Shown: one piece after another, positions 35,301-47,300 of the stretch | Numbering within the stretch: position 1 is the stretch's first letter | How the letters are laid out: each line of letters opens with the position of its first letter | Origin: Lingula anatina | Lineage: Eukaryota; Animalia; Brachiopoda | NCBI GenBank assembly: GCA_051362555.1 | Contig: CM120649.1 | Coordinates: 11,532,001-11,596,000 of the forward strand | Direction: 5' to 3' | Length of the DNA stretch: 64,000 nucleotides | Notes under the pieces: generated by a model | The model's database searches: none | What the model was told of the DNA's origin: nothing | What the model saw: only the letters and a program-made list of their open reading frames with translations | Position numbers and translations under genes: made by a program

Positions 35301-38300
35301 TTTAAGACAGTTTGAACCATTAAAATTAATTGAAATTATTTGTAATAAGATGTTTGTCGTTTATTTAGATTGTTTAAAGTGTGAATAAGAAAATTGCAGA
35401 TTGTTTGTAATTAACATAAAATAATGTATCACACTATTATTTTTATTGATATGTATAAATAATTGTCTTTGAATTTAGTTAGAAATTGTCAAAACTGAGC
35501 TGTCATGATCCCATGGCACCAGCACCATCTACTGGAGATGGCATGAGGTTTACCTCAGCATTGATCAAAGCCTCATTGTCTCCATTCAGATTTTATTCAG
35601 AATTATTCAGTTGTAGCTGACTTGTGTTATAATTATTGAACTGACACCTCTTTTTTTTATCAATACACATGTTTATGCATAATTGTCCATTAAGACTGTG
35701 GGGAAATTCAAGGGTATACTCCCTGTATTTGAGAGATTTGAGGATTGGAATTTAATATTCAATTTGTCTAAATAAGCCAAAGTCCAAATCCCTCTCTCAT
35801 CACAGCAAATTTACAATTTTCAAGACTTTCATGTAATTCTTCTATATACGTATATATGCAAGATTCTTATAGACTAGTTATTCCATCCCTTTACTTGTTG
35901 GCATATTAACATCTGCTTCCATTTCAATTTTATCTTTGATTATTTTGAAGATCAAAATGTTTGATTTTTCATCTCAGGTGTACACTTTAGTCACTGTTTT
36001 ATACTCTACGTGTTACTACATTGGTGCTTTCCCATATGCAGTCCGAGCACTGTCAGAGTTCAGAGTATCATGCGAACGTGTGAAGGTAATTCATGTGGTA
36101 GTTAACAAGGATTAAACAACTCTATCCATTTGTGAATGGATCTGGGCAACAATCACATTTGTAAACCTCTAACTTTAGAACATTTCTTGTGAGGTGTATG
36201 TTTTTTTTTCCATAAATATTATTATTTTTTTATGTTTAAGTAGGTGTAATGTAAACTTTTTATTTGTAGTCAAATGATACCCTCTTTTAAATATATCTCT
36301 TAGTTATAGAAAAAAAATGTTTGAGACTCTGGCACATGAACACAAGTAACTCACTCCAAACATCTTAACCTGCTTATTAATAAATGTCTATTTTATAAAA
36401 GCTACCAGATTATGGGTGTCACACTGCTGCTGCTACTTCTAATGCACTGACTTCTGTACAGAGACTAATGAAGAGACAGTGAAATGTTGAATAAAAAAAG
36501 AAGAAAAATAATTAAAAACCAGACAAACAATTGATAAGAAAAAAGGGAGAAGAAGAAGGAAACTTGAACAGTGGGGAAATAGAAACAAAGATAAAGAGAA
36601 AATGTGCCTCAATAGAAATATGAACAGTTTACTGGTCTCACATTATATGTATCTATCCATGCTGTATTATCAAAGGCTTATTCTTACATGTAACATGCCC
36701 ACTGACTCAAATCTACATTTCTTTTTGTTTTTGTTTTTTTTAACTTTTTTTTTTAGTTTTTTTTCTCTTCTCTTAGTGGGGGTTATGTTTCCAATATAAG
36801 CAGCTAACCACCATAAAGCTTTCAGAAGATTTTATTAACAAAACCTGAATCTAGATGAAGTCTGTACATTGGTACATATTTTTGCTTTGTTCTCCCGCCT
36901 TTTTTCGTGTGGAGAAACAATTTTTCAATTTCTCCCCACTCAGGAAATATGTTAACTACAAGTTTGTTAAAAATTGCATAACCTATTTTTCTTACATTTT
37001 TGAAGGAAAAGAAAAACTTTAAAAGAAAACCTTTATTCCTACTTTTTATTGAATTCACTAAAAAATTTTTGTTTTTAAAAAGTCGCATGTCACTTAAATG
37101 TCACAAAATTTAATGTCATTTTTAATTCAAATACGAAATCTGAAATTTGAGTGGAAATATACATTAATTCCCGTGATTAACGATACTGTCTGAGAACTTT
37201 TGCAGTTACTTGAGTAATCCACTGTATGTTATTTACAGTCCACAAAAAGAAATTATATTGGAAACTCATCTATTGGAAACTCATCATACTTTTGCCATTT
37301 CCTGGAATTAATACACCTGTACTCATCACTAGAAACTCTTTTCTTGTTAACATACCCTTGCCATGAACAGTTATAAAAAAATCTCTGTTTACAGAAGTTA
37401 CTGGGAACTCGCCTCTGAAAAGCAGGGTGTTGAAACGAGCTGTAAGGAAATATGGAGATCATTTTTTATTTTCAGAATCATATGATGAAAAAATGGATAC
37501 CACAAGCAAATGCACAAACAAAACACTGTTTCTTGGAAATTTCAATTATTCAGTATCCTACCTTCTTCTTTCCCTACCTAGGCCTACACAATAGTTAGCG
37601 TACTGAATTCAATGAGGTTTCAAATAGGCGTCCTTCCATATTCTGTGAAGGCTTTAGCTGATTGTTTCATCTCTTTGTCAAGAATAAAGGTAAAAAGAGT
37701 GTACAAATGGTGTGTGTATAGATCCAGTATGGCCTTCTATTCTTTTGCATGGCATATGTGTAAACCTTGGGCTATTTTTCTACTTAACTATTTACAAGCT
37801 TCACTATGTATTTTTCTTTTGCTGAGTTCATACTAATTGTAGTAAGAATTGAATTCTACTTATATCTTTTTCTTGTTTTTCATTTGCTTTTTTGCTGGTA
37901 TTTCATGTATTTATTTGGTTATTCCGATAAATTAAGTGTTATGTATTTAGTTGCCAACCTATACATGGCATGTTAATTTTTTAGCTTTCCTAACTCAAGG
38001 CTTATCAATTTACTTGTAAGTATTACTGACAAAAAAAAAAAAAATCAAAATTCACTTGACATTTGCTAAAATGTCTTTTCACTGTTCGTAAGGATTTAAT
38101 ATGTTGCAAAATTATATATAAAATAGACATATATAAAATAGACGTAAAAGGTGCAAGTTAGCTTCCAGCGCACTTTTTGTTTTTCTCAACATTTCCAAAT
38201 TGAAAAAAGAATTAGAGGCAGCACTACGTGTAAGATAAGTCTGCTTGTCAATTTTAATTTCAGGATTATCTGTTGAGTGTCTTACAAATATGAAATTTCT

Positions 38301-44300: not shown

Positions 44301-47300
44301 CCAGTAAAACAACCTTGGCTTTTGTTGAACAACTCAGGATTCATATCTGAATTTTTGGTAGCCTTTATTTCACATCATACGTACAGGTAAGACAAGTAAC
44401 AGTTTACGGTGTATGGTGAAACTAAAAATTAATGAAAATAAAACGCAATGAATAAAAATAAAAATGATAATACAAACAATGGAGTACAATTAATGGTGAA
44501 CATGATCAAGTAAAGGCACAATTTATGGTTCTATAATGAATAAATAAATATTTAAATAATAATAACTTACTCGAATTGCAGCTACATAAACTTGGAGATA
44601 ATCCTAATGTTCACCAAAAAAAAAAAAAAAAATGTATACATATACGATGGGCTTGCCCCCATGCATATCTGCTGACAAAATCATACGATGGGCCAGCCCC
44701 CATGCGCATCTGCTGACAAATCACGAGTGGTCTCCGCCCCAGTATGATCTGCTCATTACTCCCTAAATCATTGACCTGTCACAATGGGTCACTGGTAGTA
44801 TACTCTCAAAACTTATACAATACAAAAATGCTGTTTTCTAAACGAAACAAACGATGATAATTAATGATAATATCCTAATTGCAACAAACAATTATAATCA
44901 CAACAATTATTATTACTTAACTCTTCAAGAAGTTTTGTCAGACAGGAAAAAAATCTACAAGAGATTTTTAAATCTTAAAAGACGCTTAAATTGTGTATCA
45001 CGTCTAGTTGTCTGTAGCACATGGATTTTTTTCTGTAAATATAACATTATATTCTCGTAAAAATGTGTTTGACACATATTCAAGACAAGAATTGGATTTG
45101 CTTGAATTTTTTTAGCATGTTTTTTTGTGTTAAGGAGTGAGGATGTGTGAGCATAGTGTGAAAGTCGTTGTTCTTTATAACAGTGTCTGCCATACATGAC
45201 ATGTATATGTAAAACATTATAATTATCACTGTCAATATGCTTCTATTCCTTGGTCCACAGTAACCTCTGTATGCAGTCACCCAAAATTTCAGAAGTTCTA
45301 GAAACTAACCCCAGTCTGTTATCAGCTTGACTTTGTCACTGAAGTTTGAAGGTTTTTATGGCAGTGGATGTCAAAAAGTCATGGATTATGAGTGGTTGTA
45401 AATAGATATTGTGTCTTCTGTAGATATTGTAAAAAAATGTAAAATATTTTGACCAGTCAGTTGTGATGAAGATCATGAGCAGTTGATACAGGGTCTGAAT
45501 ATCATGATGCCTTCCCGATTTTTGCCATCTACATTACTGAGGTGAAAGTCAAATTTATGTCACAAAACCAGACCAAATGCCATCATATAATTTCAAATAG
45601 CATAACTAAAAGAAATACCAAATGGCCTTATTATATTTCCAGAGAAGTGATATTTGAACAGATATTTTCTGCTTTCTCTGCTATTGATATCCTTTGCTCA
45701 TTTTTGGCAACTCATTTAAATAATGGTGTTATTGTGCTTACAACAGTAATGCATCGCATGTTACTAAGTCATTTGATGAACTTTAGTGAACGGGAGGGAC
45801 AAATAGATGTAAGTCAGATGAATGACCAAAAATCTGAAGAAGGTACAGTTTAAAAGCTCTTTTATGGCTCATTGGTTAATGTGGTTTATCCTTTCTCATG
45901 TCGACTTTATTTGAGTCATAAACGAAACTAGTAAAGTGGTTTATATGCATTATGCAGTGAGTATAATGCATATAAACGAAACTAGTAAAGTGGTTTATAT
46001 GTATTATACTCACTGCATATGTTTCTTAAATGTGTATATTATTCCTCACATAGGCTTTTGTAGTGGTGGGGTTGTTCAATTGCGTGAAGGCAAGAATGGG
46101 CACCATGCAGGCAGCCGTCAGAGCCCTGTCAGATTTTTTTATCATCAATGAGCGCTTGAAGGTTTGCTTAGTTGATTGGGAGTTTTAATACTTAATAAAA
46201 AGGCACCCAGTGAACTTTAGACCTTTATATATTAAAAAAAAAAGGTTTTGATTTTTCATGGTGGTTTCATTACTTTTCTCTTGCTTTAACACAAAAGATA
46301 TCAAAACCTGTTGACAAAATTACATTAATGATTACTTTCATTGATCCCTTTTTGGGCTCAAAGAGATCAGGATTTGCCAAATGTGAGGGCTCGTTACCTT
46401 TGAAACTGTCTGTCTGTGTAGATTGAATCAAATCAGCATGGACTCTCATTGAATGCAACCAGTTAAACACACATCCTCTTGTTTCCAGCCTATGCTGGTT
46501 TAATCACCAGCTTTCCTGCATTGTACTCAAGGCCAGGAGGAGGCCTGTTGAGCTGATTGCACTCAGCGAGAGTCCTTGCAGATTTGGATCGATCTATGTA
46601 GACCAATATTTTCAGTGGGAATAAGCCCTTAGTGTGAACAGGGTTTCTGTGTAGTTTCAAAATTTCCATGAAGTCATAATTGAGAATAAAGTCTAGTGAT
46701 TTTAAATGGTTACAATACACAATTTAATTAAACATTTTATGGCAGGGGGAAAGGATTAAATAAATTTGCATATGGTGTACCTGGTGAAAAAGGGAAATTT
46801 TGAATATATATTAGCAACAATATGAAGGTCTAACAGGCATTGTTTTGCCATTAATGCTTTCTAATTGTATACTAATGGTGTTGTAAACAGACATGCTCTT
46901 TGGTCACTGGAAATAATGCTTTCCCATTTTGAAATGCATCTTCTTTACATTTCTTTTAAAATGTTGCTGTTAGCTGTGCACTTTTCCTGTCAGATGATAT
47001 GTGGGGATTTTATTCACTGATAGGCTCTTGGTGGTATGCGTTGACAGGCTGTATTTATTTACTTATTTAATTCTCTATTTATTTTTGCTATTTTAAAGAT
47101 ATGTAACTGATGTTGAAACAACCCTCTTCATTTGGAATGACAAATAATTTTTTTAATATACATCCCTACGCTGGGAAAATTAAAAAATAAATAGGAGTCA
47201 TTCAGTTTATGAATGATATTACACTTGGTAAAAAGCTAAGATATTTTTTCCAAAATGTGTGTCTTTGAGGCTAAAGGTTATAACTCTGATAAAGGGAGTG

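Follow-up and report, generated by a model that had tools for sequence, protein, structure and literature searches.

How many different transporters can one gene for an efflux pump encode? The question is raised by a stretch of 64,000 nucleotides from the brachiopod Lingula anatina (GenBank assembly GCA_051362555.1, contig CM120649.1, positions 11,532,001 to 11,596,000 of the forward strand; hereafter the window, with positions counted from its first letter), which holds an ABCC5-like gene in which the exon for the sixth transmembrane helix (TM6) is present seven times. We consider it likely that these exons form a tandem array of alternatives, from which each mRNA takes one to give pumps that are predicted to differ from each other; the seven-exon cassette itself is real, is partly supported by RNA and is probably mutually exclusive.

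The seven intact homologous exons, e1 to e7, are flanked by two constitutive exons (Table 1), and each of them is 108 nt long, in phase 0, bounded by AG and GT and free of stops, as the initial annotation had described. A + strand profile scan of every 108-nt frame in the window separates all seven from the background: they score 57-72 (36-55 in a leave-one-out scan), the runner-up frame scores 5, and the background has a mean of -39 with a standard deviation of 10. Twelve AG/GT-bounded, stop-free segments of 108 nt occur in 35175-48140, and the five outside the array score -26 to -48. Protein identity between exon pairs is 14-50%, with the exception of e4/e5 (78%), and the spacing introns inside the array measure 944-2258 nt. 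The residues A24 and R34 are the sole invariants and P19 is variable, being present in three of the seven, both in agreement with the initial annotation.

The host gene has the architecture of a short multidrug resistance protein (MRP). The gene model derived from the window, which was built greedily and in which two late exon boundaries are imprecise, is stop-free over 1468 codons through 59391, with the final exon taken from the frame translation. It contains both Walker A motifs, the signatures LSGGQ and FSVGERQ, the Walker B motifs LLDD and MLDE, and a lasso motif at residue 173 preceded by a hydrophilic N-terminus, and it has two transmembrane domains (TMDs) and two nucleotide-binding domains (NBDs) in the layout TMD1-NBD1-TMD2-NBD2, without a TMD0. 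A degenerate Walker B motif in NBD1 combined with a degenerate signature in NBD2 is the pattern of ABCC5/11/12-type transporters. The upstream constitutive exon scores 42 bits against ABCC5 and less than 15 against the solved relatives SUR2 and MRP1. The best fold match of a TMD1 model is human MRP5 (E 2e-15, 47% identity), the product of ABCC5 (PDB 8WI0 series), which is also the best sequence match; vertebrate gene fragments share the exon boundaries. The gene is an ABCC5/11/12-type short MRP, with ABCC5 and not MRP1-4, SUR or CFTR as the nearest solved relative, and the initial assignment to the ABCC5/MRP5 type stands. ABCC12 proteins occupy much of its homologue list, and ABCC5, 11 and 12 may together be its co-orthologues; ‘ABCC5-like’ is therefore the safe name.

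The RefSeq MRP5 model of L. anatina (XP_023932206.1) is 100% identical to the window in the upstream exon and 99.7% identical in protein sequence to our model up to the point where RefSeq diverges (4 of ~1315 aligned residues differ), but it contains e1 directly followed by e2 and lacks e3-e7. At its C-terminus this model (P0002) loses the end of NBD2 and continues into an MFS domain (PF07690), which looks like an assembly or annotation error because NBD2 ends normally in the window. That fusion, and a separate small Lingula contig (3,567 nt) bearing TMD1 exons with e1 (P0001), are what one might expect if the array were itself an assembly artefact or the remnants of collapsed paralogous genes. 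We find this hardly credible: apart from e4/e5, DNA identity between the exons is only 28-57%, no exon of the gene other than TM6 is repeated within 35175-48249, e1 precedes e2 in the RefSeq model too, and RNA joints span the array and largely refute such an origin.

The RNA evidence comes from four runs (X1, X4, X7 and X8) of the nine with the species label, of which 6-26% each was mapped to 34540-48500; a joint was listed only if it had at least three reads from two starts. The constitutive joint 34712>35026 has 27 reads (16/3/6/2 in X1/X4/X7/X8). Exon e6 is joined on both sides, by 11 reads from all four runs to the upstream exon (35174>43688; 5/2/3/1; skipping 8.5 kb) and by 4 reads from two of the four to the downstream exon at 48250 (0/3/0/1; skipping 4.5 kb; flagged ‘between: not known’). 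Exons e2 and e7 are joined to 48250 in X1 (6/0/0/0 and 3/0/0/0), skipping 10.6 kb and 2.1 kb, respectively. Three of the seven exons (e2, e6 and e7) are used, all three within run X1. Each of the 24 reads that touch an alternative exon connects it to a constitutive exon, and joints between alternative exons or skipping all of them were not listed in the four mapped runs, at low depth and with the three-read threshold. These 24 informative reads fit one-at-a-time splicing. The mutually exclusive use claimed initially is borne out in part: the joints of e2, e6 and e7 agree with it, and no joint is listed for e1, e3, e4 or e5. The junction check proposed with that claim, from 35174 through each exon to 48250, is complete for e6 and covers the downstream side for e2 and e7.

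Several points count against a strict rule of one exon per transcript and against the use of all seven. No single read covers both joints of one exon, and because the reads do not show what precedes e2 or e7, e1 and e2 could still be joined in one transcript, as in the RefSeq model. Rare co-inclusion would escape, because four of nine runs were mapped, each in part, with a three-read threshold, and in these runs the depth over e1, e3, e4 and e5 is only that of intronic background. Exclusivity might even be loose, with common co-inclusion or skipping yielding in-frame, inactive transporters, so that the array would serve mainly as a dial that sets how much working pump is made. Multi-exon and skip forms would escape frame-based decay, as 108 nt is divisible by three, the annotations of several relatives, like that of Lingula in RefSeq, contain models with co-inclusion or skipping, and the missing upstream partners of e2 and e7 leave room for such forms. 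We nevertheless regard a dial as quite improbable, since every listed read on an alternative exon leads to a constitutive one, and since divergence among the exons is biased towards the pocket face, which is not expected of a mere dial. Models that skip TM6 are found in the single-copy ABCC12 of reptiles as well (6 of the 29 members listed) and may therefore be annotation background. One exon per transcript is probably the rule.

The segment that is exchanged forms part of the cargo pocket. The exon aligns to human ABCC5 residues 433-468, which comprise TM6, as had been claimed for it. In human MRP5, the cryo-electron microscopy report describes TM6 as lining the peptide and substrate cavity, with K448, F452 and K455 lining the central pocket (PMC11156954). 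These three residues correspond to exon positions 16, 20 and 23, all of which vary across e1-e7 (G/G/L/V/N/G/G, Y/Y/Y/M/T/Y/A and R/K/K/N/H/K/R, respectively). The hydrophobic face of all seven exons sits 136-180 degrees from the pocket face, and e1 is a continuous helix with a predicted local distance difference test score (pLDDT) of 80-90 in the TMD1 model of the RefSeq fragment P0001. Exon e2 is of the ancestral type, sharing 23-24 of 36 residues with those single-copy TM6 segments of molluscs that are closest to it.

When 26 non-canonical TM6 segments are compared with 27 canonical ones, the excess variability points 23 degrees off the pocket face, with a permutation p of 0.004 that is optimistic because the segments are related. 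For the six non-canonical Lingula exons, the departure from the canonical sequence aims 12 degrees off the pocket face (p 0.04). On the other side of the balance, raw column entropy within the Lingula exons is without helical periodicity (p 0.42), none of the exons reaches p 0.05 when the pocket-face test is done exon by exon, and e5 is very polar, with a best 19-residue hydropathy of 0.13. We hypothesize that the pumps would share motor and scaffold, and that their cargo pockets would differ in charge, aromatic content and proline kink; a difference in substrate preference between the isoforms is a reasonably probable prediction.

The history of the array can be read from its copies. Synonymous sites are near saturation (proportion of synonymous differences, pS, 0.59-1.0) in 20 of the 21 exon pairs, and length, frame and splice sites are all kept. 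The youngest pair is e4/e5, in which eight residues differ, positions 16, 20 and 23 included (chance 0.008 for all three). In the introns flanking e4 and e5, 93 of 644 aligned sites differ (0.144) with 18 gaps; the exons are gap-free. Outside codons 16-25, e4 and e5 differ by 2 non-synonymous changes on 57.5 sites (p 0.008 versus the intron divergence), and are under purifying selection there. Inside codons 16-25 there are 12 changes in 30 nt (p 0.0006), which suggests positive selection; it is only suggested, because this segment was picked after inspection of the data and pS is also high within it (0.42 on 6.8 sites). A truncated eighth copy, the relic of an e3 duplicate, records duplication and loss. 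The array grows through local tandem duplication of exon plus intron; afterwards a copy is either deleted or changes, mostly on the side of the helix that faces the cavity, and e2 has kept the ancestral pocket.

The dead e3 copy inside the array could also be taken as a sign that the array is only partly live, with e2, e6 and e7 in use and e1, e3, e4 and e5 rarely used or decaying like the eighth copy. Such an array would account for the four exons without a listed RNA joint, and a protein search with e3-e7 returned no match at E<=1 among 2530 candidates, which is weak evidence. However, length, frame and splice sites are unchanged in all four exons although their synonymous sites are close to saturation; purifying selection acts on e4/e5 outside the pocket segment, with no indels against the 18 gaps in the flanking intron blocks; the e1 protein is identical in the RefSeq models; and RNA depth was low, with 27 reads on the constitutive junction. 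We therefore consider a partly live array unlikely, and the balance tips slightly towards the use of all seven exons, e1, e3, e4 and e5 included.

The initial annotation knew of no such array in ABCC5, which does not hold. We surveyed isoforms in 20 multi-member clusters, chosen from the best 120 of 511 matches with at most 15 members listed per cluster; the survey rests on automatic annotation, in which absence is not absence from the genome. In 10 of the 20 clusters, which come from bivalves, decapods and amphioxus, the annotated isoforms exchange exactly the TM6 segment, with the same residues flanking it. Among the members listed, Penaeus vannamei and P. japonicus have six variants each (seven classes across the genus), Mytilus has five classes, Argopecten, Panulirus, Homarus and Oratosquilla three each, Magallana two to three, and Crassostrea virginica and Branchiostoma two each; the decapod sets include 37-codon exons, and the canonical variant is not listed in them. 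No TM6 swap was seen among the members listed in the other 10 clusters, from Lineus, Dreissena, Mercenaria, Haliotis, Amphiura, Clavelina, Styela, one Mytilus edulis model set, and turtle and lizard ABCC12. The Lingula array, which unlike these annotated sets is unannotated in RefSeq, is among the largest seen for ABCC5 and is not unique. Models with co-included exons occur in Branchiostoma, Panulirus, Homarus, Oratosquilla, Pinctada and Anneissia, which bears against strict exclusivity; as co-inclusion and skip models occur in several swapping species, some leakiness can be argued, and the tandem-joined models imply that Pinctada and Anneissia also have arrays.

Two further observations concern these relatives. 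All three annotated isoforms of the nemertean Lineus longissimus (P0063, P0165 and P0166) have a non-canonical TM6 with an FNCV motif in common with Lingula e7, and this gene may hold an unannotated TM6 array. In the clams Mya, Dreissena and Mercenaria (P0004/P0006, P0009/P0175 and P0011/P0270) the exon for the elbow helix and TM1 is swapped between isoforms, with no TM6 swap; a second TM1 exon of this type was sought in the Lingula window and not found, the single copy lying at 32444-32591.

The trees give a lead on the age of the variants. In a tree of 56 rows and 36 columns, e4/e5 fall within a starred clade of polar variants from oyster and pearl oyster, with e7 nearby, and a 47-row tree without decapods agrees; e4/e5 sit in the starred bivalve polar clade under two models. 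The approximately unbiased test rejects monophyly for all seven exons together (p-AU 0.018, run once the tree was known) but not for the six non-canonical ones (p-AU 0.44, nine decapod rows left out). A polar exon class of common ancestry in brachiopods and bivalves is a lead, with convergence as the alternative, given that the trees have 36 columns and long branches. A profile search of 1.84 billion representatives gave 33 matches, nearly all canonical TM6 exons, with no Lingula variant among them. It is conceivable, although we think it doubtful, that an ancient polar basic class (e4/e5, perhaps e7, and the variants of oyster, pearl oyster, mussel and scallop) predates the brachiopod-mollusc split, that all seven exons are used under control by tissue or exposure, and that lineages from brachiopods to shrimp repeatedly expanded TM6 into a splice-selected cargo repertoire.

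How is one exon chosen? Steric exclusion between neighbouring exons is ruled out by the length of the introns, and frame-based exclusion or decay by the exon length, a multiple of three. A search for docking and selector sequences found at most four of six introns matching one position in the upstream intron (shuffles 3-4), and five of seven introns at one position in the downstream intron (shuffles 4-6). The best docking candidate, at 35570-35602 and picked post hoc (mean -20.7 kcal/mol), is not accepted, since 2 of 24 windows tiled over the same intron and 1 of 15 shuffles did better. All splice sites are GT-AG; a G at +5 is present in one of the seven alternative donors versus 21 of 25 constitutive donors (the copies not being independent), and the alternative exons all end in AAG or CAG. 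Such exon ends can compensate for a missing G at donor +5. Because neither intron length nor reading frame can impose exclusivity, splicing factors or RNA pairing likely do so, the latter as in Drosophila MRP1, for which RNA docking sites and competing RNA pairing are reported (PMC6071210); in Lingula the docking search found none above the controls.

Some repeats lie within the array. GA microsatellites at 38905-38944, upstream of e3, and at 42056-42090, upstream of the e3 relic, are complementary to a CT tract at 43841-43902 just downstream of e6; their pairing may loop out part of the array, or the match may be due to chance. Between e3 and e4, a long inverted repeat (39742-40348) with 186-nt arms that are 87% complementary contains poly-C/G tracts and draws reads from elsewhere; it is likely a small non-autonomous transposon.

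Exon cassettes are already known as a strategy in ABCC transporters. Like Drosophila MRP1 (CG6214) and C. elegans mrp-1, the Lingula gene has tandem duplicated interchangeable exons; unlike these members of the MRP1-type lineage, it is a short ABCC5/11/12-type gene without a TMD0. The large exon 8 cluster of Drosophila MRP1 probably lies in TMD2, and exon 4 near the helix equivalent to TM6. The parallel with Drosophila MRP drawn initially holds in kind: PMC9741552 describes tandem-exon events in human ABCC9, in C. elegans mrp-1 and in Drosophila mrp, where one of them has eight interchangeable exons. These events are unrelated, although one fly and one worm event coincide in one structural region through separate duplications; the supplement of that paper leaves ABCC5 unmentioned. 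Outside this family, accounts of the invertebrate NALCN channel report alternative homologous exons that switch pore-lining residues of the selectivity filter (PMC9741552; PMC3557258); NALCN has a two-way switch in an ion channel, unlike the seven-way array in an ATP-driven exporter. The same exon unit as in Lingula is swapped in the Penaeus, Panulirus, Homarus, Oratosquilla, Mytilus, Crassostrea/Magallana, Argopecten and Branchiostoma sets, unlike in the reptile ABCC12 clusters examined. Orthologues of ABCC5/11/12 are present in Daphnia according to PMC3724490. A full-text literature search, which covered few subscription papers and, for ABCC5 exon arrays, the top 20 matches of each query, found no publication on a TM6 array in ABCC5 or on the bivalve, decapod or amphioxus TM6 isoform sets.

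Table 1. Positions in the window of the ABCC5-like gene, its TM6 exons and their duplication
Feature	Position	Strand	Evidence
ABCC5/MRP5-like gene, ~31 exons if TM6 is counted once, without TMD0	29363..60040 (end approximate)	+	exon map
Upstream constitutive exon, TM5 region, human ABCC5 384-432	35026..35174	+	joints 34712>35026, 35174>43688
TM6 exon e1, non-canonical, position 12 without basic residue	35978..36085	+	present in RefSeq models P0001/P0002
TM6 exon e2, canonical, ancestral-type	37582..37689	+	likeness to single-copy mollusc TM6; RNA joint to 48250
TM6 exon e3, W-rich class, sister of e6	39009..39116	+	sequence and trees; no RNA joint listed
TM6 exon e4, polar class: R12, R13, without P19	41061..41168	+	sequence; no RNA joint listed
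Truncated e3 relic: acceptor and ~24 nt of exon, rest lost	42369..42436	+	82% identity to 38967-39032
TM6 exon e5, recent e4 duplicate	42636..42743	+	sequence; no RNA joint listed
TM6 exon e6, best-supported form in the mapped runs	43688..43795	+	RNA joints on both sides
TM6 exon e7	46054..46161	+	RNA joint to 48250
Downstream constitutive exon, TM6-NBD1 linker	48250..48412	+	exon map and RNA joints
Most recent tandem duplication: 38678-41798 (e3+e4) copied to 41823-43427, e3 deleted from the copy	38678..43427	+	4 collinear blastn blocks, 70-82% identity

Elsewhere in the gene, a minisatellite at 30746-32231 is built of 117-159 nt units that repeat exon 30640-30798 at its 3' end, GT donor included; the same 16-18 codons recur in ten extra copies, which place many alternative donors behind one exon. 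At 54383-54573, a 48-nt unit in four copies takes in the beginning of exon 54560-54646 together with its acceptor, giving tandem candidate acceptors. Protein kinase exons lie upstream of the gene on the + strand (1607-3888) and are presumably PAK/STE20-like judging by their motifs, and broken reading frames on the - strand (22569-24017) resemble what we take to be the RNase H and integrase region of a long terminal repeat retrotransposon.

For Lingula itself, the array corrects the RefSeq model, in which two TM6 exons are joined and five are missed. What appears to be new is a recurring and apparently undescribed hotspot at a pocket-lining helix: brachiopods, mussels, oysters, scallops, decapods and amphioxus all have several versions of this exon, which suggests that efflux diversity arises repeatedly by this route. 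Studies of sentinel and farmed shellfish that count genes or measure expression gene by gene cannot detect diversity of this kind. The array is also a natural helix-swap series, with up to seven pumps that are identical save for 36 residues, known pocket positions among them, and the share of TM6 in the polyspecificity of ABCC transporters is therefore directly testable.

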